Shown: piece by piece, positions 2,721-24,311 of the stretch
How the letters are laid out: each line of letters begins with the position of its first letter
Numbering within the stretch: the first letter of the stretch is position 1
Source: a virus
Virus record (IMG/VR): IMGVR_UViG_3300006162_000032
Strand: one strand, 5' to 3'
DNA length: 36,278 nucleotides
Program-made: the position numbers and the translations under genes
Notes under the pieces: generated by a model
The model's database searches: none
Told to the model about the DNA's origin: nothing
Seen by the model: the letters and a program-made list of their open reading frames with translations, nothing else

Positions 2721-2782
2721 AACCGCCCGATCCGATCCTACCGAAATCCGTAGACTGTCTTCCCATTTTTAGTATCTCAGTG

Positions 2783-2798
2783 TGTCTAAATTTAGACA
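2783..2798. promoter_or_regulatory. 16-bp perfect palindrome TGTCTAAATTTAGACA (operator-like) immediately upstream of promoter
   Basis: perfect inverted repeat, AT-rich surroundings. Confidence 0.45.
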
Positions 2799-2825
2799 GT
2801 TGAAAAATGAGTGAAAAAATATTTT

Positions 2826-2854
2826 TTTTCATCAAGGCATAACTAGGTTATAAT
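2826..2854 (+). promoter_or_regulatory. candidate sigma70-type promoter (-35 TTTTCA, 17-bp spacer, -10 TATAAT at 2849-2854) with A/T-rich upstream tract
   Basis: consensus -10, spacer 17, UP-like A/T run at 2800-2830. Confidence 0.45.
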
Positions 2855-2860
2855 GGATAT

Positions 2861-4080
2861 GTCCAATCTAACGGATTATGGTTAAGGCACCAGGGAAGAC
2901 CAATAGGAGCCCTACCTGGTGACCTTGTGGATCATTGAAATCTAGATTCGGTAGTTCGGAACTGAGTCCGAGTACCCAGCAAAGCGCCTGTCACGGGACG
3001 GTCTGGGAAAAGGGAATAGGGAAAAACTGAGTACCTTCTCAGAATGAACGGCCGATTAAACCTCTACTTGACGGACACCCGTGAGATTCGAGAGAATCTA
3101 AACCCTGGGACCGAGGAAACTCCCGTCATCAGAGATCGTAAGAGAAATCCAGAAGCACGAAGGGCGATTACTGTAATATCTGCCAATCTTCAGAAAAATC
3201 CGAGATTAGAGACACTCGGGCCAACCTCAGACCCTACCGGGGACGGAGAGTCCATTGAAAACTCGTAAGAGTTTGGAACGGTTCCAACGGCGGGCGGGAG
3301 GTAAGAATATGTTGACATCCCAGTTGGCTTTAGAAGATTTAAGGCGTGGGCCAAACCCCACAGTGGAGTTCACAGGTCGTACCTCACGGTCTTCGGGAAG
3401 TCCCGGATGGCGCGATTAGTATTCTGACCGCCGGATAGGACGTACCGATTTTATCTGGTCACGCCGGAATAAGCGAAATGCGATAAAGCCAGGCGTGAAG
3501 TCCACTACGACCGAATCAGGTCCCAAGTCCTGAGCATGTAGGTTATAAAGAGTAGTGGCAAAATCTAGGTTCAAACTCCCGGCAATCGGGAGAATCTATT
3601 GACACAGAGGGCCTTGCGAGTAGGAGTCGCGAGAATCAGGTGTTTCGATAAACCTGGTTCTTAAAGTGGTGATCCCAGTTAGACTGGTTGCTAAACCCCA
3701 CGAAAAGCGAACCGAAAGACGGACGGTTGTCAACGATCTACGACCCAAGTAAGAATGTCAGAGTGCCCATCGCGGACGGTACATTCCCAAACAGTTGAGC
3801 GGCGTTATGCGCCCCGGATCAACTAGAAAGATGAAACCTTTTGGAACAGAATGCCTAAATAACTCCGGTGCACAATTTATATCGGAGTTGGGATGGTTTC
3901 CAAGATTACTGAGACAATTGTATAGTCCATAGATTACCAAGGGACTCTCCTCCCGATGGTAATCGCTGTGTATGACCGTAAGGTCATGCAGAGGGGCGAC
4001 TGTTAGTAGGGACTCTCCTCCTGAATACAGTCGTTAATGCGCCGTGGGGCGGAAAATCCAATCTGAGAATAAAACCTCTC
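2861..4080 (+). ncRNA. candidate large structured non-coding RNA (or very long structured leader); no credible ORF across 1.2 kb
   Basis: no ORF >75 aa and no SD-ATG pairs. Dense local hairpins, many with GNRA loops: AAACTC-GTAA-GAGTTT 3259-3274, ATGACC-GTAA-GGTCAT about 3971-3986, CTCCCG-GCAAT-CGGGAG about 3586-3602, CACCAGG...CCTGGTG 2889-2924. Duplicated GGGACTCTCCTCC (3943, 4009) complementary to GGAGAGTCC at 3247. Confidence 0.3.
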
Positions 4081-4149
4081 AGATTGCCATACCAAGCCAC
4101 GCCAGTCCCAAGCCTGGATAAGAGCACCGGGAACAAGGAGAGGAACACA

Positions 4150-4422
4150 ATGAAAAAACTGGTTAAGGTTAGTCTCGAAGAAATCACGATGAACTTCCTG
4201 AAAGACCCGAACTCCTGGCCACGTTGGCCTTTTCTGCCCCTGGTCCGGCGTAATGGACAGAAGCCTGATTATGCCGTCCTGGCGGAGTCAAAAGAATTTC
4301 CCTTCACTCTTTTCATAGTCAATGTGTTTGACACGGAGGCCCTGAAAAATCTAAGGGACGCGGAACAGTTGGCCTATCGCAGTTTCGAGGACATCGTGAA
4401 AGATGGTTGGGTTGTTGATTAA
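4150..4422 (+). CDS. hypothetical protein (90 aa)
   Basis: AAGGAGAGGAACACA-ATG; stop abuts family-A element. Confidence 0.5.
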   Translation: MKKLVKVSLEEITMNFLKDPNSWPRWPFLPLVRRNGQKPDYAVLAESKEFPFTLFIVNVFDTEALKNLRDAEQLAYRSFEDIVKDGWVVD

Positions 4423-4452
4423 CGAGGGCCACCTCATCTGAGGTGGTAAGTC
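4422..4452 (+). repeat. family-A intergenic stem-loop element (ACGAGGGCC + hairpin + GGTAAGT)
   Basis: conserved flanks; palindromic stem acctcatctgaggtgg; starts at last base of the stop. Confidence 0.8.
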
Positions 4453-4542
4453 CGAGATTACATCGGGCGGGGATGTATGAGTTATCCTGGTCTTTCCCAT
4501 TCGCCGTCAGGGCCAACGTTGCCTAAGTGGGCCGAGATGGTC

Positions 4543-4572
4543 AAAAGGTGAGTACTAGTTAATCACCTTTTC
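4543..4572 (+). terminator. rho-independent terminator-like hairpin (AAAAGGTGA...TCACCTTTT)
   Basis: 9-bp stem with T-run on the 3' arm. Confidence 0.45.
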
Positions 4573-4682
4573 AACCACCCGGTTCGGAACATCAGCCAAC
4601 TAACCGCGCCCAGGCCAACTGGACCCCGGAACTAACCATCCCTCCCCGCGCGGCGTGATTTCGGATTTCAAGGAGAGGAACA

Positions 4683-5090: not shown

Positions 5091-5121
5091 ACGAGGGCCG
5101 CGGATCACTCCGCGGTAAGTA
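5091..5121 (+). repeat. family-A stem-loop element
   Basis: TGA-ACGAGGGCC-gcggatcactccgcgg-TAAGT. Confidence 0.8.
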
Positions 5122-5183
5122 CAGTTAAGGGAGGAAATCCCAACAAGAGATTACATCTCTTGTTGCTGTACCAGGAGAGGAAT
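5118..5183 (+). promoter_or_regulatory. family-B-like structured leader (variant: TACAG/CTGTA P1, GGGAGGAAATCCC, AACAAGAGA...TCTCTTGTT) ending in CCAGGAGAGGAAT-ATG
   Basis: shares the 3' block GCTGTACCAGGAGAGGAA with copy at 15637-15706. Confidence 0.55.
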
Positions 5184-5447
5184 ATGGCAAGAACTTTGCA
5201 AAAAGAACAACGCACCGTCTATGTCACGACCGTACGAGTAGAGGCCCAGACGTTCGAAAAGACCAACAAAGGAACCTGGGAGTACGTCGGGCCGGGCAGT
5301 ACCGATTATGAACGGGAATACACGGCCGTGGCCAGTGAGAGTCATCACGTCGCCGAAAACATCGCCGACAAACTGGTCGACGCATTTCCTGAACTTCACC
5401 AAAAAGACCAGGACACTACTAACTGGTTCAATAACGATATTGGTTGA
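5184..5447 (+). CDS. hypothetical protein (87 aa)
   Basis: start after conserved leader; ORF-track N-terminal extension LLYQERN is the translated leader. Confidence 0.55.
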   Translation: MARTLQKEQRTVYVTTVRVEAQTFEKTNKGTWEYVGPGSTDYEREYTAVASESHHVAENIADKLVDAFPELHQKDQDTTNWFNNDIG

Positions 5448-5475
5448 CGAGGGCCACCCCACGGGGTGGTAAGTA
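5447..5475 (+). repeat. family-A stem-loop element
   Basis: ACGAGGGCC-accccacggggtgg-TAAGT. Confidence 0.8.
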
Positions 5476-5488
5476 TGGAGAGAAAACA

Positions 5489-5779
5489 ATGAAAAAGAAC
5501 CACGAACAAAGCAAAGAATTCACCAAGTTGTTGCTCGATCTGAAAGAACAGGGTTGGTCTATTTATATGAGACCGATTTTGCGAATCGTCGATGATACCT
5601 GGATACTCCGGCGGCGGTCTGATCCGTTGGAATTCCTGTTCGTCGCCGAAGACTTTCAGGTGTGGGAACGGAAGCGGTTCACCCGTGAACCGTTTGGTGA
5701 CTATACCGTGCCCTACCGCGATTTGGGTGGGGGCAAAGACCTGAAATCACTTTACCAGAACCTTACGAGGGCCGCCTGA
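5489..5779 (+). CDS. hypothetical protein (96 aa); last codons (..TRAA-stop) lie inside a family-A element
   Basis: GGAGAGAAAACA-ATG; stop TGA in hairpin loop. Confidence 0.55.
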   Translation: MKKNHEQSKEFTKLLLDLKEQGWSIYMRPILRIVDDTWILRRRSDPLEFLFVAEDFQVWERKRFTREPFGDYTVPYRDLGGGKDLKSLYQNLTRAA

Positions 5780-5793
5780 GAAGGCGGTAAGTA
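5765..5793 (+). repeat. family-A stem-loop element (stop codon of upstream gene in its loop)
   Basis: ACGAGGGCC-gcc-TGA-gaaggc-GGTAAGT. Confidence 0.75.
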
Positions 5794-5886
5794 CCGGGTC
5801 TCACCCAAGACGACAAGATCATGGTTGAGTAGTCCATGACGAGACTCCGAGCGCGTGCGGCCCGGTACTTCAAAAAGAGAGGAACA

Positions 5887-6090
5887 ATGATATATCACAT
5901 AGGACAGGAAAAAGGTGGGCGAATTAAATTCACAACGGATGTTGATTGCCTGTCTCCGCAGATCGTGAAATATACCAAAAAGAACTTCCAAAATCGGGGA
6001 GAGGTTCTATTGTTGGCCGAGGAACTGTGGAAACAGGGTCATGAAACCTGCGTTGATGATGAGGTTGGTTTGGTGGAGTTGGAACACTAA
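5887..6090 (+). CDS. hypothetical protein (67 aa)
   Basis: AAAAGAGAGGAACA-ATG; upstream 90-nt leader forms 10-bp helix AAGTACCGGG/CCCGGTACTT. Confidence 0.45.
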   Translation: MIYHIGQEKGGRIKFTTDVDCLSPQIVKYTKKNFQNRGEVLLLAEELWKQGHETCVDDEVGLVELEH

Positions 6091-6118
6091 CGAGGGCCGC
6101 CCGGTCGGGCGGTAAGTG
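6090..6118 (+). repeat. family-A stem-loop element
   Basis: TAA-CGAGGGCC-gcccggtcgggc-GGTAAGT. Confidence 0.8.
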
Positions 6119-6237
6119 ACGGGTCGGTTCGATTCCACTCGCCCGCGCCTAGTAAGGGTGTGTGTTTGTTGAGTCCCCTTCGAACGGCCAGTTGCAAGGA
6201 TGACGTCGATCCGTCACTTACCAAGGAGAGGAACAAA

Positions 6238-6549
6238 ATGACTTACAAAAGAAAAAAGTTGATTGTACTTCCGGAACGTCTCTTTCGTCAAAAGATCGAG
6301 GCGCAATTGGCAAAGGTTATCAATGCGGTCGAAGTCGCCCATGGTGAGGCGATGAGTCTCAGTATCATTGCCGAGGACCAGACCACGGCCCTGGACAATG
6401 ATCCCGAGGCACTGTCCCCGAAAAACAAACGGGCTTATAACCTGGCCGAGGATGTTTTGGAATGGGCGCAGGCCGTCGAGGAACTGTTGGATGGGGTGGA
6501 TACCGGGGCAATCCGGGCCAAGCTCAAAAAAGCAACGAGGGCCGCCTGA
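6238..6549 (+). CDS. hypothetical protein (103 aa); C-terminus ..ATRAA encoded by a truncated family-A copy
   Basis: AAGGAGAGGAACAAA-ATG; 12-bp helix GGTAAGTGACGG (6111-6122)/CCGTCACTTACC (6213-6224) abuts the SD. Confidence 0.5.
   Translation: MTYKRKKLIVLPERLFRQKIEAQLAKVINAVEVAHGEAMSLSIIAEDQTTALDNDPEALSPKNKRAYNLAEDVLEWAQAVEELLDGVDTGAIRAKLKKATRAA
6535..6549 (+). repeat. truncated family-A element (ACGAGGGCCGCCTGA) inside coding 3' end
   Basis: identical to the 5' half of the copy at 5765. Confidence 0.6.
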
Positions 6550-6557
6550 TGGCCAAA

Positions 6558-6590
6558 ACGAGGGCCGACTCAAAAATGAGTCGGTAAGTA
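6558..6590 (+). repeat. family-A stem-loop element
   Basis: ACGAGGGCC-gactcaaaaatgagtc-GGTAAGT. Confidence 0.8.
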
Positions 6591-6603
6591 CAAGGAGCGT
6601 AAT

Positions 6604-6846: not shown

Positions 6847-6876
6847 ACGAGGGCGGTCACCCCGGTGACCGTAAGT
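6847..6876 (+). repeat. family-A stem-loop element
   Basis: ACGAGGGC-ggtcaccccggtgacc-GTAAGT. Confidence 0.8.
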
Positions 6877-6891
6877 ACAAAGGAGAACAAA

Positions 6892-7167: not shown

Positions 7168-7197
7168 ACGAGGGCCGGGTTGAAAACCCGGTAAGTA
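7168..7197 (+). repeat. family-A stem-loop element
   Basis: ACGAGGGCC-gggttgaaaaccc-GGTAAGT. Confidence 0.8.
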
Positions 7198-7209
7198 CAG
7201 GAGAAAAAC

Positions 7210-7447: not shown

Positions 7448-7477
7448 ACGAGGGCGGTCACTTCGGTGGCCGTAAGT
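7448..7477 (+). repeat. family-A stem-loop element
   Basis: ACGAGGGC-ggtcacttcggtggcc-GTAAGT. Confidence 0.8.
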
Positions 7478-7492
7478 GCAAAGGAGATAACG

Positions 7493-7774
7493 ATGACTGA
7501 AAAAGATCACCCCGACGATATCTTAAAAGAATTGGGGTTTGTACAAACATATCCCAGAAAATCCGAGGGTGATACCAGATATTTTCGTGGCGAGGCAAGT
7601 GACCGCACCGCGATGATTATATGGTATTCCCAGGACGAGGGCACCGCCGGAATTCGTTACATCGACAACGGTAAAAGGGCAGGTCGACATATTTGGATCG
7701 GGTCATACTCAATTCTGGCCGATATGTTGGTCAAACTTAAAACAAATGGATTTTTTACGAGGGCCATTCCGTGA
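7493..7774 (+). CDS. hypothetical protein (93 aa); C-terminus FTRAIP-stop encoded inside family-A element
   Basis: AAAGGAGATAACG-ATG. Confidence 0.55.
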   Translation: MTEKDHPDDILKELGFVQTYPRKSEGDTRYFRGEASDRTAMIIWYSQDEGTAGIRYIDNGKRAGRHIWIGSYSILADMLVKLKTNGFFTRAIP

Positions 7775-7786
7775 GGAGTGGTAAGT
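7757..7786 (+). repeat. family-A stem-loop element (stop TGA in GNRA-like loop GTGA)
   Basis: ACGAGGGCC-attcc-GTGA-ggagtg-GTAAGT. Confidence 0.75.
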
Positions 7787-7810
7787 CCAAATATGGACTA
7801 AGGAGAACCA

Positions 7811-8141: not shown

Positions 8142-8170
8142 ATGAGGGCCGCCCACCTTGGGCGGTAAGT
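8142..8170 (+). repeat. family-A stem-loop element (variant ATGAGGGCC)
   Basis: ATGAGGGCC-gcccaccttgggc-GGTAAGT. Confidence 0.7.
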
Positions 8171-8197
8171 CCAAATATGGACTAAAAGGAGAACAAT

Positions 8198-8531: not shown

Positions 8532-8562
8532 ACAGAGGGTCGGACGATAAGTCCGGTAATGG
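8532..8562 (+). repeat. family-A stem-loop element (ACAGAGGG variant, 3' flank GGTAATGG fused to family-B leader)
   Basis: ACAGAGGGT-cggacgataagtccg-GTAATGG. Confidence 0.7.
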
Positions 8563-8626
8563 CAATGAGGGAAAACCTCAGAACTGAACGGTACCCGTTC
8601 AGTTTGCCATACCAGGAGAGGAACAT
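8556..8626 (+). promoter_or_regulatory. family-B structured 5' leader (three-way junction: ATGGCAA/TTGCCAT P1, GAGGG-AAAA-CCTC P2, variable P3) ending in ACCAGGAGAGGAACAT-ATG
   Basis: P1 and P3 complementarity; P3 = GAACTGAACGG/CCGTTCAGTT. Confidence 0.6.
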
Positions 8627-9069: not shown

Positions 9070-9101
9070 ACGAGGGCATCCCCGGAAACGGGGGTGTAAG
9101 T
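9070..9101 (+). repeat. family-A stem-loop element
   Basis: ACGAGGGC-atccccggaaacgggggtg-TAAGT. Confidence 0.75.
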
Positions 9102-9134
9102 CCGATGAATCGGGCTTATACAGGAGAAGAACAA

Positions 9135-10697
9135 ATGAATCACCAAGAAATGTTGAAGTCGTTCTTGGCAGTTGAAGCGATGAAGTCGTACAACGTCGTT
9201 AGTCCAATAATGTTATCCAATCCGATATCCGTGTTAAAACGTATGACGCGCGATAAAGGTTGGAGTAACCAGGCCATTGTTGAAATGGGCCGTCGGAAAA
9301 TGCTGGGAAAGTTTCTGGGAAGTTACGTCTTGCGTAATGTTTCCGGAGATGAAATATACCAAAAATTTCCGGTGTTGGATTATTTGGGTGAAGTTTCGTT
9401 GTTCTCGAAACCCGCCGACTGTGTTACTTACCGGGGAACGCCCGAGCAAAATCAAGTAATTGATCGCGCCTTGGCCGTCTCTCCGGTAAATACTTCCAAT
9501 AATTTTTTTGGGAGTGGTATCGCCGGACGTTTGTCCACGTTTTATAACGTGATCAATTTGGACATTGGGAACACACCCATTGCCATCATCGGTGGTGGGG
9601 CGGCGGGCCAAATTGTACGATATGGCCTGAGTCGCACCGGATTTAAAAATGTAACTCTTTATGAAAAGGGCAAACCATTTGGAATCTGGTCACGGGAAGA
9701 TATCAAAGGCGGGAGTCGAAACAATCCTCGTAGATTGGTCCTGGGCGAGTATGCCCTGGAACCGGCGCCCGGCGAAGGATCGGAGGTACGGGATTTTCTG
9801 CAAAATATCCAGAACGCCAATTCATTAAACGTTATCACCAACGACGTCACCACGGTTACTCCGAACAATCTTGCCCACGGGGTTTATGACCGTGGTCAAA
9901 GTTTTAAGGAGTACCCCATCGTCATCAACTGCCTGGGACTGGGAAAACCGAAAAACCTCTCGGATCGCCACCGTATGGTGACATCTGCGGAGGTCACCCA
10001 CGCCGGTAACCGTTGGCAAAAGCGCCTCACTTACCCGCAAATTAAGGGAAAGAAATTTCTCTTTATTGGCCTGGGAAACTCTACCGCCGAGATGCTCCGG
10101 CAACTTCACGATGCCCAGGATCGAGGAATTGATACCGATTATTCGGTATTGACCCACTATCCCAAGGACTCCGTATTTAATCCGGATGATTACATCATCC
10201 AAAAAAACACGAAGTACCGGGTATTTCGTGATCTTTCTGCCTCGAACCTGGTAGATTACGAGGGCGATCTTCCCCAGAACCGGGCCGATTACTACCGGGC
10301 ACTGCGGACGGGGCGCATCGTGTCAGATGTCACCGGGTGGGACCGGATCATAAAAGACTTTGTGATCCGGCGGGGTCGTTCCCAGACCGAAACCAAAGTG
10401 GATGAGTTTTATAACCTGACCGGTTATGAGAATCGCCCCGACGATCTGGTGAACTTCGGTTGCAGTTTCCGGCACAATGAAATGCAATACGACTACGACG
10501 GAGAAATTCAAAAGTCTCCCGGACTGGCCGACCCGGAACTCCGGTTGCACAAAGGTTACTTTGGGTTTGGCGCCCTTCTGGGAACCTCCCACAACCCCAA
10601 CGCGATCGTGATTCCGGGTATGTTGCACCGCCTGGGCGACCTGTTGTTCGGGGTCATCGTGCGGTCTATGGAGTACAAAGAAAAACAGAACGACTAA
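9135..10697 (+). CDS. FAD/NAD(P)-binding oxidoreductase with two dinucleotide-binding motifs (flavin monooxygenase-like)
   Basis: IAIIGGGAAGQIV (GxGxxG) and FLFIGLGNSTAEML (second Rossmann, PvdA/IucD-like GxGxSxAE); CAGGAGAAGAACAA-ATG. Confidence 0.7.
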   Translation: MNHQEMLKSFLAVEAMKSYNVVSPIMLSNPISVLKRMTRDKGWSNQAIVEMGRRKMLGKFLGSYVLRNVSGDEIYQKFPVLDYLGEVSLFSKPADCVTYRGTPEQNQVIDRALAVSPVNTSNNFFGSGIAGRLSTFYNVINLDIGNTPIAIIGGGAAGQIVRYGLSRTGFKNVTLYEKGKPFGIWSREDIKGGSRNNPRRLVLGEYALEPAPGEGSEVRDFLQNIQNANSLNVITNDVTTVTPNNLAHGVYDRGQSFKEYPIVINCLGLGKPKNLSDRHRMVTSAEVTHAGNRWQKRLTYPQIKGKKFLFIGLGNSTAEMLRQLHDAQDRGIDTDYSVLTHYPKDSVFNPDDYIIQKNTKYRVFRDLSASNLVDYEGDLPQNRADYYRALRTGRIVSDVTGWDRIIKDFVIRRGRSQTETKVDEFYNLTGYENRPDDLVNFGCSFRHNEMQYDYDGEIQKSPGLADPELRLHKGYFGFGALLGTSHNPNAIVIPGMLHRLGDLLFGVIVRSMEYKEKQND

Positions 10698-10727
10698 CGA
10701 GGGTGGGTCACTTCGGTGACCCGTAAG
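10697..10727 (+). repeat. family-A stem-loop element
   Basis: ACGAGGGT-gggtcacttcggtgaccc-GTAAG. Confidence 0.75.
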
Positions 10728-10761
10728 ACCAATCAAATCTTTAAATAGGAGAGGAATTAAC

Positions 10762-11193: not shown

Positions 11194-11223
11194 ACGAGGG
11201 CCACGGAGAAATCCGTGGTAAGT
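11194..11223 (+). repeat. family-A stem-loop element
   Basis: ACGAGGGCC-acggagaaatccgtgg-TAAGT. Confidence 0.8.
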
Positions 11224-11241
11224 ACAAGGAGAGAATTTCAA

Positions 11242-11478
11242 ATGAACCGACAAAATGTAGAAAAAACCAAGAAAAGATTGGAAGAACTAGGAGTCATCTC
11301 CCTAAATGAACTGCGCACACGCCTGGCTAAAAAGGGTGTGTCGCCGAATATACCGCTCACCACGGCCATGGTGAAACATGTTGAAAGTTACCCCCGGCCG
11401 GAGGAAGTCGTGGCCATGGGACTGGCGATGATTATGTACGGAATGATCAAGATGGAAAGGCGAGGGAACCCCCTCTGA
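11242..11478 (+). CDS. hypothetical protein (78 aa)
   Basis: CAAGGAGAGAATTTCAA-ATG; stop TGA lies in loop of hairpin AACCCCC-TCTGA-GGGGGTT. Confidence 0.5.
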   Translation: MNRQNVEKTKKRLEELGVISLNELRTRLAKKGVSPNIPLTTAMVKHVESYPRPEEVVAMGLAMIMYGMIKMERRGNPL

Positions 11479-11498
11479 GGGGGTTTAAGGAGGGAAAT

Positions 11499-12214: not shown

Positions 12215-12242
12215 CAGAGGGCCACGGGAAACCGTGGTAACG
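12214..12242 (+). repeat. family-A stem-loop element (ACAGAGGG variant)
   Basis: ACAGAGGGCC-acgggaaaccgtgg-TAACG. Confidence 0.75.
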
Positions 12243-12301
12243 CACTCGTCCCTCCAGGCCGTGCGTTGGAAGCAAATTTGTTCGTGATAGGAGAGATTCA
12301 A

Positions 12302-12611: not shown

Positions 12612-12643
12612 ACGAGGGCCGGCCCAGTCATGGGCCGGTAAGT
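12612..12643 (+). repeat. family-A stem-loop element
   Basis: ACGAGGGCC-ggcccagtcatgggcc-GGTAAGT. Confidence 0.8.
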
Positions 12644-12658
12644 ACAAAGGAGAAAACA

Positions 12659-12841: not shown

Positions 12842-12953
12842 CGAAGAGGAGCCTCAACATGGTTGGATCGCCACGATGATTGGGGCGGTAATCGTTGGGT
12901 TTTCGATTACCGGGGTCATCTTGATGGTTCAATGGTTTATAACGCGTCACTAA
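12828..12953 (+). CDS. hypothetical 41-aa membrane peptide
   Basis: overlaps 3' end of previous gene; TM segment IGAVIVGFSITGVILMV; stop abuts family-A element. Confidence 0.3.
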   Translation: MKNNDEEEPQHGWIATMIGAVIVGFSITGVILMVQWFITRH

Positions 12954-12983
12954 CGAGGGCCACGGGGGTAACCCGTGGTAAGT
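12953..12983 (+). repeat. family-A stem-loop element
   Basis: ACGAGGGCC-acgggggtaacccgtgg-TAAGT. Confidence 0.8.
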
Positions 12984-13002
12984 ACAAAGGAGAACGACAA
13001 AG

Positions 13003-13230: not shown

Positions 13231-13262
13231 ACGAGGGCCGTGGGATAACTTCCACGGTAAGT
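13231..13262 (+). repeat. family-A stem-loop element fused to family-B leader
   Basis: ACGAGGGCC-gtgggataacttccacg-GTAAGT. Confidence 0.8.
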
Positions 13263-13328
13263 GTGGCAGAGGGAAACCTCAGAGTGCGACGGCCTCCGCC
13301 GTCGACACTGCCATACCAGGAGAGGAAT
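13262..13328 (+). promoter_or_regulatory. family-B structured 5' leader (P1 TGGCAG/CTGCCA, a covariant of GGCAA/TTGCC)
   Basis: GAGGGAAACCTC P2; P3 GTGCGACGG/CCGTCGACAC; CCATACCAGGAGAGGAAT-ATG. Confidence 0.6.
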
Positions 13329-13749: not shown

Positions 13750-14003
13750 AAAAAGCAAAATCGACACCCAATCCGGAATGGACCGAGGAAAAGGTCAAAA
13801 AAGAATTACCCATGGTCAAACTCCAGGTTGGCCCACGGGTCATTCTTACTGCCGTTACTTCTGGTCGAATGTTAGATTATTGCGTAGTTTCCGTTTACTC
13901 CCATATGAATCTGGACGTGCCCCAGGTACGGGAAATGCGTCTGGAATTTTCCTGGGCGGCGGTTACTCGCAGTCTCAACGAAAATAAACCACTACAAATA
14001 TAA
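13746..14003 (+). CDS. hypothetical protein (85 aa)
   Basis: ATGA overlap. Confidence 0.5.
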   Translation: MKKAKSTPNPEWTEEKVKKELPMVKLQVGPRVILTAVTSGRMLDYCVVSVYSHMNLDVPQVREMRLEFSWAAVTRSLNENKPLQI

Positions 14004-14033
14004 CGAGGGCCGTGGGGAAAACCCACGGTAAGG
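14003..14033 (+). repeat. family-A stem-loop element (GGTAAGG variant)
   Basis: ACGAGGGCC-gtggggaaaacccac-GGTAAGG. Confidence 0.8.
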
Positions 14034-14066
14034 CCACAATAGAGTGAGCCTTGTAAGGAGAGGAAA
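14027..14066 (+). promoter_or_regulatory. family-C leader (GGTAAGGCCAC...GTGAGCCTT helix abutting AAGGAGAGGAAA-ATG)
   Basis: AAGGCCAC/GTGAGCCTT complementarity; related copies at 14318 and 14794. Confidence 0.45.
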
Positions 14067-14290: not shown

Positions 14291-14323
14291 CCCGAAGGCG
14301 GGTCACTCCGGTGACCCGTAAGG
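14291..14323 (+). repeat. family-A-like stem-loop (no ACGAGGG; stem gggtcactccggtgaccc + GTAAGG)
   Basis: same stem as copy at 10697. Confidence 0.55.
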
Positions 14324-14376
14324 CCACCATCCGGGGGCACGAAAACCGGAGTGAGCCTTATTAGGAGAGGAACAAT
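14318..14376 (+). promoter_or_regulatory. family-C leader with inserted hairpin TCCGGGGGCACGAAAACCGGA
   Basis: GTAAGGCCACC...GTGAGCCTT-ATTAGGAGAGGAACAAT-ATG. Confidence 0.45.
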
Positions 14377-14734: not shown

Positions 14735-14751
14735 AAACTCAAAACATATCT

Positions 14752-14766
14752 CTGCGATTATCGCAG
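14752..14766. promoter_or_regulatory. palindrome CTGCGATTATCGCAG (copy 1 of 2) between stop codon and family-A element
   Basis: second copy CTGCGATTCTCGCAG at 15592-15606 in identical context AAACATATCT-pal-TGATACGAGGGCC. Confidence 0.5.
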
Positions 14767-14770
14767 TGAT

Positions 14771-14800
14771 ACGAGGGCCGTGGGGAAACCCACGGTAAGG
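14771..14800 (+). repeat. family-A stem-loop element (GGTAAGG variant)
   Basis: ACGAGGGCC-gtggggaaacccac-GGTAAGG. Confidence 0.8.
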
Positions 14801-14853
14801 CACAAGCCGGGGGCACGAATCCGGCGGTGACCTTAAAAGTGGAGAGGAAAAAT
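14794..14853 (+). promoter_or_regulatory. family-C leader with hairpin GCCGGGGGCACGAATCCGGC
   Basis: GTAAGGCAC...GTGACCTT-AAAAGTGGAGAGGAAAAAT-ATG. Confidence 0.4.
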
Positions 14854-15069
14854 ATGGCACCCGAAAAACCAAAGGCCAAGACGGTAACCGTAGAGCTGCG
14901 CGTGGTTGATCCCAAGAAGGGAGCAGTCAAATACAGCCTTCCCAAGGATCAGTCCGGCGTACTCACCAACATCTACGTCAACCGTCTGGAGGCGATGAAA
15001 GAACTGGGTATCTCTGAACTCGGGGACCTCAAGGGTTTCAAGGTTACCCTGGAACCTATTACTGCGTGA
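14854..15069 (+). CDS. hypothetical protein (71 aa)
   Basis: GGAGAGGAAAAAT-ATG. Confidence 0.5.
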   Translation: MAPEKPKAKTVTVELRVVDPKKGAVKYSLPKDQSGVLTNIYVNRLEAMKELGISELGDLKGFKVTLEPITA

Positions 15070-15098
15070 CGAGGGCCGGCCCATCTGGGCCGGTAAGT
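15069..15098 (+). repeat. family-A stem-loop element
   Basis: TGA-CGAGGGCC-ggcccatctgggcc-GGTAAGT. Confidence 0.8.
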
Positions 15099-15111
15099 AC
15101 CGGAGGAAACA

Positions 15112-15234
15112 ATGAACAAACTTAAACAACTCGGAGAGTACGTAGTAGTACTGGCGGTCGTCGTAATCATTATCATCGGCAGTCGCCACCTAATCGGCGA
15201 CAATGTTAATCTGGTTTATAGCGTGGTTCGTTAA
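15112..15234 (+). CDS. hypothetical 40-aa membrane peptide
   Basis: CCGGAGGAAACA-ATG; TM VVVLAVVVIIIIG; below ORF-track cutoff. Confidence 0.35.
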   Translation: MNKLKQLGEYVVVLAVVVIIIIGSRHLIGDNVNLVYSVVR

Positions 15235-15261
15235 CGAGGGCCGTGGGAAACCACGGTAAGT
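15234..15261 (+). repeat. family-A stem-loop element
   Basis: TAA-CGAGGGCC-gtgggaaaccac-GGTAAGT. Confidence 0.8.
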
Positions 15262-15297
15262 CAATCTCCCCATTGACTTGAAAGGAGGACGCGCGAT

Positions 15298-15575: not shown

Positions 15576-15591
15576 AAATAAAAACATATCT

Positions 15592-15606
15592 CTGCGATTC
15601 TCGCAG
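15592..15606. promoter_or_regulatory. palindrome CTGCGATTCTCGCAG (copy 2 of 2)
   Basis: see 14752-14766. Confidence 0.5.
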
Positions 15607-15610
15607 TGAT

Positions 15611-15640
15611 ACGAGGGCCGCGGGGAAACCCGCGGTAAGT
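15611..15640 (+). repeat. family-A stem-loop element
   Basis: ACGAGGGCC-gcggggaaacccgcg-GTAAGT. Confidence 0.8.
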
Positions 15641-15706
15641 ACAGCCGGGAAAAAATCCCAAACAAGAAACTTAAACCGTCTCTTGTTGCTGTACCAGGAG
15701 AGGAAC
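15637..15706 (+). promoter_or_regulatory. family-B-like structured leader (variant, paralog of 5118-5183)
   Basis: TACAGC/GCTGTA P1, GGGAAAAAATCCC, AACAAGA...TCTCTTGTT, CCAGGAGAGGAAC-ATG. Confidence 0.55.
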
Positions 15707-15971: not shown

Positions 15972-15998
15972 ACGAGGGCCGTGGGAAACCACGGTAAG
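15972..15998 (+). repeat. family-A stem-loop element
   Basis: ACGAGGGCC-gtgggaaaccac-GGTAAGT. Confidence 0.8.
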
Positions 15999-16068
15999 TA
16001 TGGTTAATGAGGGGAAACCTCAGAACCAAGAGACTTCGTCTCTTGGTTTGCCATACCAGGAGAGGAAC
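15999..16068 (+). promoter_or_regulatory. family-B structured 5' leader
   Basis: ATGG..TTAATGAGGGGAAACCTCAG; P3 AACCAAGAGAC/GTCTCTTGGTT; TTGCCATACCAGGAGAGGAAC-ATG. Confidence 0.6.
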
Positions 16069-17172: not shown

Positions 17173-17201
17173 CAGAGGGACGCGGCGAACCTGCCGCGTT
17201 A
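17172..17201 (+). repeat. family-A-like stem-loop (ACAGAGGGAC-gcggcgaacctgccgcg-TTAATG)
   Basis: variant flanks. Confidence 0.55.
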
Positions 17202-17219
17202 ATGAACAGGAGGGAAAGC

Positions 17220-17431: not shown

Positions 17432-17460
17432 CAGAGGGCCGTGGGTAAATCCACGGTAAT
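17432..17460 (+). repeat. family-A stem-loop element (CAGAGGGCC ... GGTAATGG) fused to family-B leader
   Basis: CAGAGGGCC-gtgggtaaatccac-GGTAATGG. Confidence 0.75.
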
Positions 17461-17524
17461 GGCAATGAGGGGAAACCTCAAACATGCGGCTTCGCCGCAA
17501 TGTTTGCCATACCAGGAGAGGAAC
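17455..17524 (+). promoter_or_regulatory. family-B structured 5' leader
   Basis: TAATGGCAATGAGGGGAAACCTCA; P3 AACATGCGGC/GCCGCAATGTT; TTGCCATACCAGGAGAGGAAC-ATG. Confidence 0.6.
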
Positions 17525-17709: not shown

Positions 17710-17742
17710 ACGAGGGCCGGGGGATATATTTCCCCGGTAAGT
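17710..17742 (+). repeat. family-A stem-loop element
   Basis: ACGAGGGCC-gggggatatatttcccc-GGTAAGT. Confidence 0.8.
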
Positions 17743-17763
17743 AAATATCAAAGGAGAACGTAA

Positions 17764-19113
17764 GTGGAAGAAAAAGAATTATTAGATCGTGCAAAATCCG
17801 GCGATCAAGACGCGTTCTCCCAAATATATCGTGACCAGTTATCGCGGGTAAAAAAAACTTTGCGCAAATATTGGCAACTGAATGAAGACGCCGTGGAAGA
17901 ACTGGCCCAGGTGACCTTTACGAAGGCCTTTCTGGCCATCGGCGATTTTCGAGGTGAGGCCAAATTAAGTTCCTGGTTGCATCAAATTGCGCACCGGGAA
18001 TTTTTGATGTACCTACGAAGAAAGAACAATCTTTCAGAAGTATCCTTGGATAATCCCATCAATGAAGATGGAAACACCCTGGATTTGCCGGATACTCCGG
18101 ATAAAACCATAGATTCCTGGATCACACGTGAGCATTTTTTGCGCTTGTTACCGTATTTGAATAGGAGCCGGCGCCGCGTGTTGTTTCTTAGATTTCTGGA
18201 AGAAAAAACTTTGGAAGAAACCGCCGGAATTTTAAATTTGTCCGTCGGGGCCGTAAAGGCCTATCAATCACACGGTTTGAGTGATCTTCGAGTGTTGTGG
18301 GAGAGCAAATCAATGAGCAAATCAATGAGCAAGAAAAAACGAAGGTTGCGGCGCGAAAAACTGGTCGCCGCGGCCGCCCGGGAACACATCGGGAGTCCAC
18401 CACCGACGCAAATACGAAGTTCACGGAATGCGGGGGCGTCCAGATTCAATGAAACGGAACTGGGTAGTTATTACCATCTGAGCGGACGCGACCCTCGTGC
18501 CCCGAATCAAATATTTACGTCGCACGGACTTCTGGCAAAAACCCCCGTGAATCTCCGTCCCCCCCGGACGGTCACAGCACCGGGGCCGGTTCGGCAGTAT
18601 ACCCAGGAAGAGATTGTTCATCAAAACTATCTCTTTCAACTAAAACAACAAGGAGAGAAAACAATGGAACAAATACCAAGTGGATCACCACCGACCATCG
18701 AGTCTTTGATATCTGATGCCCATCGCAAGGTACAGTTTTATACCCGGCAGGCCGCGGAATCCGAGGCCGAGGCCCGTAAGTGGACCGCGGTGATTGAACA
18801 ACTGACAAGTGCCCACGATATTATCACGGGAAAGAAGTCGATTAATGCGACGGCCCATGATGAGGTCAATGGAAATGCCCCGCAGACTCGTTCACCACGA
18901 GGATATTGGGAACCGGTCTTAAAACAGATACTCGCCGATGGGCCTCTTCCTAAGAACGAATTAGTTCAGAAGATGATGACCGCGGGTACCACAAATGGTC
19001 AGGCCTATTCGATCATCCGTCGATGCCAAGATAAAGAATTAATCCTGGAATCGGATGGAAAACTGCACTGGATGGCGCCGGTCACCGAAGAACAACCGAG
19101 GGCCGCGGGGTAA
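17764..19113 (+). CDS. ECF-type sigma-70 family factor (regions 2 and 4) with about 260-aa C-terminal extension
   Basis: region 2: AVEELAQVTFTKAFLAIGDF...SSWLHQIAHREFLMYLRRK; region 4: RRVLFLRFLEEKTLEETAGILNLSVGAVKAYQSHGLSDLR; AAAGGAGAACGTAA-GTG start; in-frame internal AAGGAGAGAAAACA-ATG at 18664. Confidence 0.75.
   Translation: MEEKELLDRAKSGDQDAFSQIYRDQLSRVKKTLRKYWQLNEDAVEELAQVTFTKAFLAIGDFRGEAKLSSWLHQIAHREFLMYLRRKNNLSEVSLDNPINEDGNTLDLPDTPDKTIDSWITREHFLRLLPYLNRSRRRVLFLRFLEEKTLEETAGILNLSVGAVKAYQSHGLSDLRVLWESKSMSKSMSKKKRRLRREKLVAAAAREHIGSPPPTQIRSSRNAGASRFNETELGSYYHLSGRDPRAPNQIFTSHGLLAKTPVNLRPPRTVTAPGPVRQYTQEEIVHQNYLFQLKQQGEKTMEQIPSGSPPTIESLISDAHRKVQFYTRQAAESEAEARKWTAVIEQLTSAHDIITGKKSINATAHDEVNGNAPQTRSPRGYWEPVLKQILADGPLPKNELVQKMMTAGTTNGQAYSIIRRCQDKELILESDGKLHWMAPVTEEQPRAAG
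18303..18326 (+). repeat. 12-bp tandem repeat (GAGCAAATCAAT x2) inside sigma-factor extension (SKSMSKSM)
   Basis: directly visible. Confidence 0.8.
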
Positions 19114-19127
19114 TACCCGTGGTAAGG
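19097..19127 (+). repeat. family-A stem-loop element (stop TAA of sigma gene in loop)
   Basis: CGAGGGCC-gcggggTAAtacccgtg-GTAAGG. Confidence 0.7.
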
Positions 19128-19138
19128 AGGGAACAACA

Positions 19139-19357: not shown

Positions 19358-19385
19358 CAGAGGGCCGGCCCACGGGCCGGTAATG
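19357..19385 (+). repeat. family-A stem-loop element (ACAGAGGG variant)
   Basis: ACAGAGGGCC-ggcccacgggcc-GGTAATGG. Confidence 0.75.
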
Positions 19386-19449
19386 GCAATGAGGGGAAAC
19401 CTCAACAAATAAGCCAACGGCTTATTTGTTGCCATATCAGGAGAGGAAA
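19379..19449 (+). promoter_or_regulatory. family-B structured 5' leader
   Basis: TAATGGCAATGAGGGGAAACCTCA; P3 AACAAATAAGCC/GGCTTATTTGTT; TTGCCATATCAGGAGAGGAAA-ATG. Confidence 0.6.
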
Positions 19450-19857: not shown

Positions 19858-19885
19858 CAGAGGGCCGTGGGGTAAACCCACGGTA
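19857..19885 (+). repeat. family-A stem-loop element (ACAGAGGG variant)
   Basis: ACAGAGGGCC-gtggggtaaacccac-GGTAACGG followed by hairpin AACGGAC-TACT-GTCCGTT. Confidence 0.75.
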
Positions 19886-19916
19886 ACGGACTACTGTCCG
19901 TTATGAGGATAAAAAC

Positions 19917-20431: not shown

Positions 20432-20460
20432 CAGAGGGCACCGGGGAAACCCGGTGTAAC
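20432..20460 (+). repeat. family-A stem-loop element (CAGAGGGCA variant)
   Basis: CAGAGGGCA-ccggggaaacccggtg-TAACGG followed by hairpin AACGGA-TATCTT-CCGTT. Confidence 0.7.
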
Positions 20461-20489
20461 GGATATCTTCCGTTATCAAGGAGAGGAAT

Positions 20490-20999: not shown

Positions 21000-21027
21000 C
21001 AGAGGGCCACGGGTAAACCCGTGGTAA
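20999..21027 (+). repeat. family-A stem-loop element (last copy; ACAGAGGG variant)
   Basis: ACAGAGGGCC-acgggtaaacccgtgg-TAATG. Confidence 0.75.
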
Positions 21028-21116
21028 TGTACACCAGACCGTAATCGGTGTACTATGATTTTGCTGTTGTTCCTCTCCGAACAGACACGGGGTTGTTCCC
21101 GTGTCATACAGCAAAC

Positions 21117-21149
21117 CCCGGCCCAGGAAACTGGGCCGGGCATATTTTT
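21117..21149 (+). terminator. rho-independent terminator (CCCGGCCCAG-GAAA-CTGGGCCGGG + CATATTTTT)
   Basis: 10-bp GC stem, GNRA loop, U-tract; ends the small-gene array. Confidence 0.8.
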
Positions 21150-23142: not shown

Positions 23143-24311
23143 ATACAAATCTCGACGCTCTCATTATCAATTCATACGCCGGCAGCCTGGTGCTCGGAGC
23201 GCAATCTACCGGACTAGAAATTCGTGGGTCTTATGAAGACTGCGGGTTTGGTCTTCCGATCCAGAAATTGAACTTTCCGAAGTTGAAATTTGTGGAAAGA
23301 ACCCCCTGGCCAAAAGACAATTTGTCTTCTACCATTGTTATTGCCCACCCTCCCTGCGCGGCCTTTTCCAATCAAAACAATTCAGTCTCCCGCAAGGGTA
23401 TTAATACGGACGCCTTTAAGTGTCATCGGGAGGTGATGGACTATTCGATGAGCAACCGGTGTGCGGCCCTGGCCATCGAGTCGGTCCCCGGTGCGTTAAA
23501 GGCCCAGGCGGAGTATGCCAAGTATGCCCGGAAGTACAACTACACCCACTACTTCATACATTTAAATTCGGCCAGTTTCGGGGTCTCGCAATGGCGTCCC
23601 AGAGTTTGGATGATATTCCTGCGCGACCTACCACGGTTGGTGGTAAATCCTCCGTGGGAGTGGAAGACCGTGGGAGATATTCTACAAACCCCCGAAGAAT
23701 ATGAGGCCGCCGTCGGGGCCGGGATCGAACCAAATGTCATGATGAAGAAGTTACTGGATTATTTCGGCAAGAAATTCAAGACCGCCGAGTTTAACTTCGA
23801 AGAGTTTTTGAAATTTGAAAATATCGGATCGTTCGTACCGGCCGTGGCGGAGTTCCTGAATATTGAAAAGACCCGCGAGGCCGTTAACAAGGCCTGCGGT
23901 ACCTCGGGATTGTTCGGGGTTCGGTTGCCGCGGAAGATGGACCTACGGTGGTTTTCTCCGGTGATCCTGGACGATAGTTTTTTCTTTGCCAATGGTCGCC
24001 CCCTGACGATGATCGAGTACCAAAGAATCATGGGATTCCCCGATGATTTTAAATGGCCAGAAAATCTCAAACGAAAATTCACCATGTATCTTTCCAAGGG
24101 CGTGGCACCGCCGGTCGCGGCCTGGATCGCAAAGACTTTGGTCATGAATTGTGAGAAGACCATCTCGTTATCTCCCGCCCGTACCCAGGTCGGTGCGCCC
24201 GGTGAAATTCTGGATATCCGGCCGAATACCGATCAGGCCAAGGAGGCCGTCAACCGGAGTCGCAACAAGACATTACCATTCGTCGGAAAGTTTAAGAGGG
24301 CCGCGGTATGA
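23139..24311 (+). CDS. DNA (cytosine-5)-methyltransferase-like protein
   Basis: motif IV HPPCAAFS (PC), motif VI IESVPG (ENV-like), motif VIII QWRPRVW (QxRxR), N-terminal SYAGSLVLG (motif I-like); correct order. Confidence 0.6.
   Translation: MNTNLDALIINSYAGSLVLGAQSTGLEIRGSYEDCGFGLPIQKLNFPKLKFVERTPWPKDNLSSTIVIAHPPCAAFSNQNNSVSRKGINTDAFKCHREVMDYSMSNRCAALAIESVPGALKAQAEYAKYARKYNYTHYFIHLNSASFGVSQWRPRVWMIFLRDLPRLVVNPPWEWKTVGDILQTPEEYEAAVGAGIEPNVMMKKLLDYFGKKFKTAEFNFEEFLKFENIGSFVPAVAEFLNIEKTREAVNKACGTSGLFGVRLPRKMDLRWFSPVILDDSFFFANGRPLTMIEYQRIMGFPDDFKWPENLKRKFTMYLSKGVAPPVAAWIAKTLVMNCEKTISLSPARTQVGAPGEILDIRPNTDQAKEAVNRSRNKTLPFVGKFKRAAV

Follow-up and report, generated by a model that had tools for sequence, protein, structure and literature searches.

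To our knowledge, twister ribozymes are abundant and have almost no established biological role. In phage T7, conserved hairpins between the cistrons of the early transcript are RNase III sites, and their cleavage leaves a protective 3′ hairpin on the upstream product; the duplex of an RNase III site is irregular and some 20 bp long or longer. The twister has a P2 of four pairs and a dispensable P1, with its L4-P4/L1-T1 architecture being key for activity (PMC5408937), and imperfections in its pseudoknots are those least tolerated (PMC11662667). In the Bacillus subtilis cggR-gapA and glnRA operons, a hairpin at the new 5′ end that follows an RNase Y site sets product abundance, not cleavage (PMC11780869). 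RiboJ places a ribozyme and a 23-nt hairpin before the ribosome-binding site (RBS), with terminal stabilisation and RBS exposure as the suggested roles of the hairpin (PMC6206723). Here we set beside these systems a 36,278-nt stretch of one strand (the window) from an uncultivated phage, IMG/VR virus record IMGVR_UViG_3300006162_000032, in which a hairpin element recurs 35 times between genes and the leaders that follow it are predicted to be closed by helices.

The phage has one predicted complete twister at the head of its early operon, followed by 35 copies of the cleavage-site half only. New here are the near-complete twister at 3987-4117 and the match of the elements to its P2-L1-P1 half. 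In nine unrelated leader classes, the helices start at the counterpart of the ribozyme's 5′ product end with the RBS open, which provides an independent positional clue.

Helices that close the leaders

The element has the form xx-GAGGG-(hairpin P1)-UAA-yy, and its copies are intercistronic, on the + strand, between 4422 and 21026. Twenty-one of them are followed by leaders of 27-235 nt (long leaders). Another 13 lead directly into the RBS as UAAGUAC-AAAGGAGA-N-AUG (short forms), with the Shine-Dalgarno sequence (SD) beginning 7-10 nt after the flank. Positions in the leaders are counted below from the U|A step, and elements are given with their xx/yy dinucleotides where these distinguish them.

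According to the preliminary description, the conserved 3′ flank, (GG)UAAGU, supplies the 5′ arm of leader helices specific to each gene, with the 3′ arm next to the SD; nearly all long leaders bear this out. In 19 of the 21, the minimum-free-energy (MFE) fold contains a closing helix whose first paired base lies at +1 to +3 after U|A and whose partner lies at most 10 nt, usually 2-6 nt, 5′ of the SD, an arrangement found in 7.3% of dinucleotide shuffles. These 19 leaders represent nine independent, unrelated classes. When the three bases before U|A are included, several helices reach -1 to -3, and the starts range overall from -3 to +4 nt from the counterpart of the twister cut. In 8 of the 13 leaders of more than 50 nt, among them those of e4424, e5767 and e6092, the non-conserved part of the 5′ strand (+5 to +14) pairs better with its own 3′ strand than with any other (the scoring is not applicable to short hairpin leaders), and the helices are therefore not a by-product of the conserved flank. 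The modelled folds thus argue that the helices are real RNA stems closing a gene-specific leader between the element and the next RBS.

The two leaders on which the description centred illustrate the arrangement. Upstream of gene 5887, element e5767 (5765-5788, +) carries AC-GAGGG, a P1 at 5772-5787 (CCGCCU/AGGCGG, loop GAGA) and U5788, with the upstream stop codon TGA (5777-5779) in and next to the P1 loop. The 5′ arm of the leader helix, AAGUACCGGGUC (5789-5800, +), begins with the A that follows U5788, leaving no gap to P1, and pairs with GGCCCGGUACUU (5859-5870, +). The claimed pairing of AAGTACCGGG with CCCGGTACTT is present as a perfect 10-bp stretch, with the first arm at 5789-5798 and the second at 5861-5870. 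It is followed by CAAAAA-GAGAGG and the start codon, and both the SD (5877-5882) and the ATG (5887-5889) are unpaired in the MFE. In the fold of 5765-5889 (dG -44.3, z -2.86), the G.U-closed P1 and the leader helix are contiguous. Upstream of gene 6238, e6092 (6090-6113, +) carries AC-GAGGG, a P1 at 6097-6112 (CCGCCC/GGGCGG, loop GGUC) and U6113. Its leader helix has 17 bp in the MFE (6111-6127 with 6206-6222, +) and overlaps the last 2 nt of P1 and U6113. The perfect complementarity of GGTAAGTGACGG (6111-6122) with CCGTCACTTACC was confirmed, with the second arm at 6211-6222 and not, as had been given, 2 nt further on at 6213-6224; this perfect 12-bp part reads GGUAAGUGACGG with CCGUCACUUACC and is followed by AA, the SD GGAGAGG (6225-6231) and the ATG (6238-6240). 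The fold of 6090-6240 has a dG of -61.5 and a z of -2.49, and in both focal leaders the helix is present in the MFE as well as in the centroid. The 6092 leader contains GGUUCGAUUCC; a tRNA or tRNA-like origin was considered, and ARAGORN found none.

Overlap of the kind seen in the 6092 leader raises the question of whether the leader helix, by pairing +1 to +4 and sometimes GGU, competes with the 2-bp P2 and the outer P1 and so silences a twister-like site at particular genes. The 6092 helix does remove two P1 pairs in the MFE; moreover, of the seven elements whose xx/yy are not fully complementary, six have long leaders (CA/CG three times, AC/GG twice, AC/GA once), and 12 of the 13 short forms are complementary, with three dinucleotide combinations. 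However, most leaders show no overlap with P1, the two stems being merely contiguous, and such antagonism leaves the position of the helix 3′ end at the SD unexplained. We consider it decidedly improbable.

The other long leaders vary widely in size and sequence. The longest, the 235-nt leader of e4424 (AC/GU; 4422-4682, +; P1 4429-4446, U4447|A4448), obeys the rule through a 14-bp helix of AAGUCCGAGAUUAC with GUGAUUUCGGAUUU (4448-4461/4655-4668), before an SD at 4672 and the ATG at 4683. The three family C leaders had been described as pairing in a similar way, and they do: AAGGCCAC/GUGAGCCUU forms at 14030 and 14320, and AAGGCAC/GUGACCUU at 14797. The corresponding elements, all on the + strand, are e14005 (AC/GG; 14003-14066, helix 14030-14037/14044-14052), e14294 (14292-14376, with CC-GAAGG as the sole core variant; helix 14318-14324/14355-14361) and e14773 (AC/GG; 14771-14853, helix 14797-14803/14827-14834). 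A family-C-like helix, AAGGCACCAGG with CCUGGUGACCUU, also occurs at 2884-2926, about 25 nt after the predicted transcription start and with no half-twister before it.

Shorter leaders are closed by simple hairpins on the + strand. The hairpin AGUCCA/UGGACU occurs in e7759 (7757-7810; 7784-7789/7794-7799, start +2, SD 7802) and in e8144 (AU/GU; 8142-8197; 8168-8173/8178-8183). In e9072 (9070-9134), the hairpin 9098-9105/9110-9117 starts at +1 and can be extended to -3. Starts at +1 are likewise seen in e15236 (15234-15297; AAGUCAAU/AUUGACUU, 15258-15265/15272-15279, loop CUCCCC), e19860 (CA/CG; 19858-19916; AACGGAC/GUCCGUU, 19885-19891/19896-19902) and e20434 (CA/CG; 20432-20489; AACGGA/UCCGUU, 20458-20463/20469-20474). 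The exceptions to the rule are e10699 (AC/GA; 10697-10761, +), whose 37-nt leader has no convincing closing helix, and e12217 (CA/CG; 12215-12301, +), whose hairpin AACGCAC/GUGCGUU (12239-12245/12261-12267, loop CCCUCC) starts at +1 and lies 22 nt from the SD.

The suggestion that these structures position or occlude the RBS fared unevenly: positioning is possible, whereas occlusion did not stand. In the MFE, 18 of the 21 long leaders leave the SD unpaired, compared with 23% of shuffles. With P1 and 30 nt of coding sequence included, the mean probability of being unpaired is 0.66 for the SD of long leaders and 0.62 for that of short leaders; for +1 to +4, the corresponding values are 0.24 and 0.80. 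An RBS-sequestering leader, of the type of a riboswitch or thermometer expression platform, was accordingly rejected, the SD and start codon not being paired in the default fold.

A leader structure that hides the SD, or that alternates with a hiding fold, to regulate translation nevertheless draws on several observations. Predicted SD accessibility is low in the leaders of 15613 (0.02), 12217 (0.30) and 15236 (0.33), which may be exceptions to the open RBS. Anti-SD-like C-runs occur in the loops of the +1 hairpins of e12217 (UCGUCCCUCCAGGCC, 12246-12260, containing CCCUCC) and e15236 (CUCCCC, 15266-15271), where they are complementary to GGAG-type SDs and partly to GAGGG, and hairpin 1 of the family B leaders described below pairs CCUC with an SD-like GAGG. 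Set against these are the SDs left unpaired in most long leaders, the equal mean SD accessibility of long and short leaders, and closing helices that stop 2-6 nt short of the SD and do not extend over it. Regulation by occlusion is thus very improbable.

The repeated element and the twister ribozyme

P1 of the element comprises 6-8 bp, and all 246 of its 246 pairs are canonical (236 Watson-Crick, 10 G.U), with 28 distinct stems among the 35 elements and a GNRA or UNCG tetraloop in 13 of them. GAGGG is present in 34 of 35 copies, the remaining one having GAAGG, and UAA in all 35. The six outer P1 pairs all show compensatory changes, and the flanking xx/yy dinucleotides covary (AC/GU 20, CA/UG 5, CC/GG 2, AU/GU 1, partial mismatch 7). 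The covariation score of the element is 0.90, compared with 0.20 in shuffles, none of 500 of which reach it, and it is at most 0.16 with slid partners. Pair counts were taken from trimmed, equal-length alignments made with the structure in mind, because MAFFT on whole leaders misaligned P1. The element pattern has no copy on the - strand of the window and no unselected match in 4.6 Mb of other DNA.

Canonical pairing, G.U pairs, RNA-type tetraloops and covariation together indicate that the element is a structure of the sense-strand RNA and not of DNA. A function at the DNA level, as N4-type hairpin promoters or recombination sites of the attC or PeSL type, with incidental leader helices, would fit the cassette-like layout, in which small same-strand open reading frames (ORFs) are each followed by a conserved-flank hairpin, and the signs of recombination within elements. 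It is scarcely credible given the tetraloops, the 10 G.U pairs with no A.C in the sense strand, the homology to a ribozyme and the lack of sigma70 hexamers or U-tracts at the elements. The short-form SD, 7-10 nt after the flank, also leaves no room for the distance between a promoter and its start, and the ACGAGG-to-TAAGT spacing varies from 17 to 22 nt.

Several specific identities were also rejected. An intrinsic terminator does not fit, as P1 is followed by UAAGUAC without a U-tract and the + strand terminator scan lists no element. A sigma70 promoter (ACGAGG-N17-TAAGTA) or PeSL is disfavoured by the variable spacing, the nearby SD, the RNA-type loops and G.U pairs, and the absence of any promoter-like match at the elements. 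An RNase III site needs a duplex of about two turns, whereas P1 has 6-8 bp and the closing helices 6-17 bp, mostly 6-8. Kink-turns, the UAA/GAN motif, tetraloop receptors, integron attC sites, CsrA sites and lambda nut have an unsuited strand order or unsuited conserved positions, as judged by inspection only.

The short forms, all on the + strand, are e5449 (5447-5488, with an 18-nt leader and no helix), e6560 (6558-6603), e6849 (6847-6891), e7170 (7168-7209), e7450 (7448-7492, with a UUCG loop), e11196 (11194-11241), e11462 (GC/GG; 11460-11498), e12614 (12612-12658), e12955 (12953-13002), e15071 (15069-15111), e17175 (CA/UG; 17173-17219), e17712 (17710-17763, preceding the sigma-factor gene) and e19098 (CC/GG; 19096-19138). 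Both e11462 and e19098 contain UAAGGAGGG. In e11462, the flank merges into the SD; its P1 loop contains the upstream stop codon, and that of e19098 contains the stop codon of the sigma gene. More generally, the stop codon of the upstream ORF ends 1-6 nt 5′ of GAGGG in 21 of 35 elements and falls within the P1 loop in four, and in the remaining elements it lies up to 38 nt upstream.

The elements also show traces of their own history. A degenerate 5′ half (ACGAGGGCCGCCTGA..., 6535-6557, +), a truncated copy, directly precedes the complete e6560, and two upstream genes end within elements in the same frame, ACG AGG GCC GCC TGA (6535-6557 and 5765-5779). These features suggest recombination or duplication within elements. 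One 28-mer is shared, without a difference, by 15234-15261 and 15972-15999. In addition, 14735-14770 and 15576-15610 contain a homologous 37-38-nt spacer with the hairpin CUGCGAUU(A/C)UCGCAG between stop codon and element, such that these 3′ untranslated regions are paralogous.

The last element, e21002 (CA/UG; 21000-21053, +; hairpin 21029-21035/21047-21053), follows the final gene of the unit, with no SD or gene between it and the terminator. This argues that the element goes with the 3′ end of the cistron before it and does not act as an operator for the next RBS. This bears on the possibility that the element binds a trans-acting RNA-binding regulator, with the helix looping out the leader and keeping the SD beside the bound factor. 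Invariant single-stranded GAGGG and UAA next to a hairpin of fixed length (6-8 bp) and free sequence would suit such a site, as would a helix constrained at both ends, by P1 at its start and the SD at its end. However, no candidate RNA-binding protein was recognised: ten proteins, eight of them early, gave 0 matches against PHROGs, and among ten further proteins (19.9-35.6 kb) only ThyX, a metallophosphoesterase and a Pam3 gp33-like protein were recognised. An operator would also leave as coincidence the exact match of the conserved residues to a ribozyme core. We therefore regard it as quite unlikely.

That core is found in full in the intergenic region before gene 4150-4422, where a search for the missing L4 motif brought to light a near-complete twister ribozyme of the type P5 order at 3987-4117 on the + strand. 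It reads UGCA-GAGGG-P1-U4035|A4036A-UGC-GC-P3(insert)-CCAG-UCCCAAGC-CUGG, with all conserved twister parts in the consensus arrangement: P2b UGCA (3987-3990), L1 GAGGG (3991-3995), P1 (3996-4003/4027-4034), the predicted scissile U4035|A4036, P2a UGC (4038-4040), T2 GC (4041-4042, with G4112 and C4113), P3 (4043-4047/4097-4101, with a large insert), P4 (4102-4105/4114-4117) and L4 UCCCAAGC (4106-4113), which equals the consensus. P3, CGUGG/CCACG, is present in the nested fold. The region aligns with the twister model over its full length (1-58) at 30.0 bits, with E values of 1.7e-4 (401 nt) and 0.017 (41 kb). It falls below the gathering score of 37.6, a shortfall due to a P1 loop of 23 nt and a P3 insert of 57 nt. 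From its sequence we thus predict a near-complete twister with cleavage at U4035|A4036. The motif GGGACUCUCCUCC occurs twice here, in a hairpin loop before the twister (3941-3953) and in the twister P1 loop (4010-4022), and the CUCUCCU within it is the exact complement of the AGGAGAG SD (4138-4144) of gene 4150; twister cleavage would separate this anti-SD from the gene-4150 mRNA.

The 35 elements correspond to the P2-L1-P1 half of this twister, an assignment made by sequence comparison, and their UAA therefore aligns with the scissile U|A. An Rfam scan at the gathering threshold gave no match in known RNA families, and with permissive settings four elements matched Twister-P5 below the threshold (23-24.7 bits, compared with 37.6); a twister search of the two focal leaders at E<=10 gave no match. 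The half-sites share with the twister a P1 adjoining the U-A step and the conserved L1 nucleotides. Their counterpart of P2 has only two complementary nucleotides (xx/yy), formed in 28 of 35 with no extension, and the short forms run directly into the SD, with no L4-like hairpin in any leader. On the + strand upstream of the array, there are two L4-like hairpins only, at 3521 and 4106. With a 2-bp P2 and without L4, T1 or T2, the half-sites are not canonical twisters and should not self-cleave by the known mechanism. GAGGG and UAA are nonetheless the residues that the twister needs for catalysis and T1, and apart from the one GAAGG they are invariant in 35 L4-less copies whose stems have freely diverged. 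An invariant core with compensated stem divergence thus points to purifying selection for something beyond the known ribozyme mechanism.

One candidate for such a function is a naturally split twister whose cleavage sites are the 35 half-sites. The L4-like hairpin at 3521 belongs to a partial twister-like module at 3494-3532 on the + strand (22.9 bits, E 0.01), with P2 CGU/ACG, T2 AC with GU, and P4/L4 CAGG-UCCCAAGU-CCUG, and without L1 or P1. It is the reciprocal of the 35 half-sites, and its T2 is kept through a compensatory AC/GU change; a second full twister around 3494-3660 was rejected, only this partial module being present. In a split twister, each substrate hairpin would bring the scissile U|A, general acid and general base (GAGGG/UAA), and P4/L4 would be supplied by the 3494-3532 module, sitting in about 1.1 kb of untranslated RNA freed by the full twister, or by a protein replacing it. 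One small ribozyme core would then cut the whole phage operon into monocistronic mRNAs, with the leader helices as product caps. Within the window, UCCCAAGC-like motifs were not enriched (35 compared with 31 expected), and no complement of the flanks was seen beyond a 3-bp T1 potential. As no pairing beyond these 3 bp was found to hold the halves together, we give a split twister only a slim chance.

Family B provides a further link to the ribozyme. Its seven leaders of 67-73 nt (at 5091, 8533, 13231, 15611, 15972, 17432 and 19358) form a three-way junction of a closing helix, a conserved hairpin (GAGG-GGAAA-CCUC or GGGA-..-UCCC) and a hypervariable long hairpin, followed by a near-identical ACCAGGAGAGGAAnAUG. 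The corresponding elements on the + strand, with their closing helices, are e5093 (AC/GU; 5091-5183; 5119-5125/5165-5171, SD 5174, ATG 5184), e8535 (CA/UG; 8533-8626; 8559-8564/8605-8610), e13233 (13231-13328; 13261-13267/13310-13316), e15613 (15611-15706; 15639-15645/15688-15694), e15974 (15972-16068; 15998-16004/16050-16056, ATG 16069), e17434 (CA/UG; 17432-17524; 17459-17464/17505-17510) and e19360 (CA/UG; 19358-19449; 19383-19388/19430-19435). Covariation is seen in all three helices, with 10 of 19 pairs compensatory and a score of 0.65 versus 0.26. The family aligns end to end with the full twister save for a clean 42-nt gap, corresponding to P3b/P4/L4. The closing helix at this missing catalytic block, AUGGCAA/UUGCCAU, is new sequence where the twister has AUGCGCC, and it therefore arose, or was kept, in leaders without the catalytic domain. 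This suggests a role for the closing helix that is independent of self-cleavage.

The same kinship could mean that the helices are remnants of ribozyme domains, or inverted flank duplications, carried along with duplicated gene cassettes and without present function. Leaders that equal the twister minus a 42-nt block, the duplicated or hybrid elements (6535/6558, and the identical 28-mers at 15234 and 15972) and the palindromic flank GUAC, which favours fold-back duplication, are all consistent with such a residue. Against it, nine unrelated leader classes follow one rule, the closing helices as well as hairpins 1 and 2 carry compensatory changes, and the family B closing helix is not inherited from the twister. 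We consider this origin without function unlikely.

Relatives of the array were sought in several collections. No phage match to orthologous loci was obtained by megablast or by blastn of the upstream region. The element pattern gave single, non-hairpin chance matches only in three scans of viral contigs, single matches only among the matches listed for metagenomes, and 8 single matches in genomes, about chance level by our own estimate. The loci of the closest relatives of a 367-aa protein encoded in the window (about 52% identical; five loci) have neither the element nor an analogous hairpin family.

Proposed role of the closing helices

Our preferred reading, which we hold tentatively and at somewhat less than even odds, is that the closing helices are insulating or 5′-stabilising stems. 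The leader between element and RBS would be tied off as a stem-closed domain flush with P1, so that the SD and start codon stay single-stranded next to the helix end, whether the leader has 28 or 235 nt. Cleavage at or near U|A would turn P1 into a hairpin that protects the 3′ end of the upstream cistron, and the new 5′ end would be guarded by the closing stem or, in short leaders, by the RBS at a distance of 7-10 nt. In uncut RNA, the stem would still bar pairing between leader and RBS, and little naked RNA would be left.

Several points weigh against insulation or stabilisation by these stems. All structures are predicted folds. Conservation was judged on paralogues inside the window, not on orthologues, and paralogues are not fully independent. 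The analysis establishes the pairing with its statistics, the covariation, the predicted openness of the RBS and the homology of the element to half a twister; cleavage at the half-sites, stabilisation and an effect on expression are inferred. Ends bearing a 5′-OH may not need a cap. Many helices cross the putative cut site by 1-3 nt (6092, 9072, 19860, 20434 and the GGUA/UACC option of the family B leaders), an overlap that would be superfluous in a structure serving only to cap cleaved ends. In the MFE, the 3′ product of the full twister begins with 7 unpaired nucleotides. Neither P4/L4 nor the two pseudoknots, all of them essential for twister catalysis (PMC5408937; PMC11662667), are present in the half-sites.

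Putative transcription unit, gene content and comparison with known systems

The window appears to belong to a phage genome of roughly 100 kb, and its genes are all on the + strand. Many of the ORFs from 0.4 to 21 kb are small, with no assigned function. Among the encoded proteins are a sigma-70-family protein, an RNA ligase, a cytosine methylase, an SNF2 helicase and ThyX, with Pam3-like replication genes further on. The contig recurs in several public assemblies (ERZ28007521, ERZ27247953 and SRR5581440 contain it), and even the closest relatives of the 367-aa protein mentioned above are only about 52% identical. The best sigma70-like + strand match 5′ of the array is at 2826-2854 (TTTTCA-17-TATAAT), and the sole strong + strand intrinsic-terminator-like site 3′ of it is at 21117-21140 (10 bp, 9 GC, T-run); both calls are consensus matches only. 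All 35 elements fall between these sites, and the array looks like one transcription unit of about 18 kb. No additional element copy was found in about 18 kb of flanking phage sequence outside the window.

Near the start of this unit, an independent annotation of the same contig leaves about 1.4 kb (2721-4149) without a called gene, with the promoter match near its start and the twister at its end. Blastn of this upstream region gave no similarity in the phage collection. A strongly structured RNA in the 1.1-kb untranslated region was rejected, the overall fold having a z of only -1.45; the 1.4-kb stretch may be a long leader or a non-coding RNA freed by the twister.

The sigma-70-family gene (17764-19113) has regions 2 and 4 within its first 180 aa, followed by an extension of about 270 aa, and among 5.8 billion clusters no homologue but itself was found at E<=1e-10. 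A T4 Rnl1-type RNA ligase and a calcineurin-like phosphoesterase are encoded at 24308-25456 and 26607-27212; the pair could heal and seal 2′,3′-cyclic-phosphate and 5′-OH ends, the end chemistry of twister cleavage, and a link to the elements is speculation. For 25457-25843, the precomputed annotation of an identical gene gives an Acb2/Tad1-like hairpin domain (anti-CBASS/Thoeris sponge), a domain that a Pfam scan at E<=0.01 did not reproduce. A perfect 14-nt tandem repeat, GGGCAACCGCGCCG, occurs 5.3 times within an ORF at 2334-2407, with three copies fewer (42 nt shorter) in another assembly of the same phage. At 28807, the window differs by one base from another assembly (GGAGTAGTG versus GGAGTGTG). 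The MVP-shoulder protein is a single 851-aa ORF in the other assembly and is split in the window into ORFs 27422-28873 and 28807-29976, which reflects either an assembly error or a real frameshift. A weak glmS ribozyme match inside a coding region at about 33401-33579 (24.6 bits versus 37, E 0.069) is probably due to chance.

Among described systems, the twister (Rfam RF02684, type P5) is the closest in sequence. The 3987-4117 region shares every conserved part in order. The 35 elements have xx-GAGGG-P1-U|AA-yy in common with it, and their xx/yy covary as the first two P2 pairs do. The elements differ in keeping the part that is dispensable for catalysis, P1, while lacking the key L4-P4/L1-T1 architecture (PMC5408937).

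Other systems resemble the array in arrangement. The RNase Y operon hairpins have in common with it a stem-loop at the putative 5′ end of the downstream cistron, between genes of one transcript. RNase Y sites, however, have a weak GA or AU-rich consensus and no conserved upstream hairpin, whereas here a conserved twister-like motif occurs 35 times. Compared with the RNase III sites of T7, P1 is short (6-8 bp) and has conserved single-stranded flanks, and the closing helices (6-17 bp) are not conserved in sequence. The PeSL cassettes of T4-type phages (PMC2839356, PMC4122927) likewise present repeated intergenic stem-loop motifs among small early ORFs without assigned function, together with gene shuffling; they combine a sigma70 early promoter with a terminator-like stem-loop, whereas the elements here lack such hexamers and U-tracts.

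RiboJ shares the order of ribozyme-type site, hairpin flush with the cut, and RBS. It is, however, engineered and built on an active hammerhead-type sTRSV ribozyme, whereas the complete catalytic core is present here in only one of 36 sites. If the sites are not processed, a ribozyme core would have been co-opted for another RNA function. If they are, the array would be a natural, genome-scale version of the engineered ribozyme-plus-hairpin insulation of operons, and could also provide a source of compact, sequence-diverse parts.

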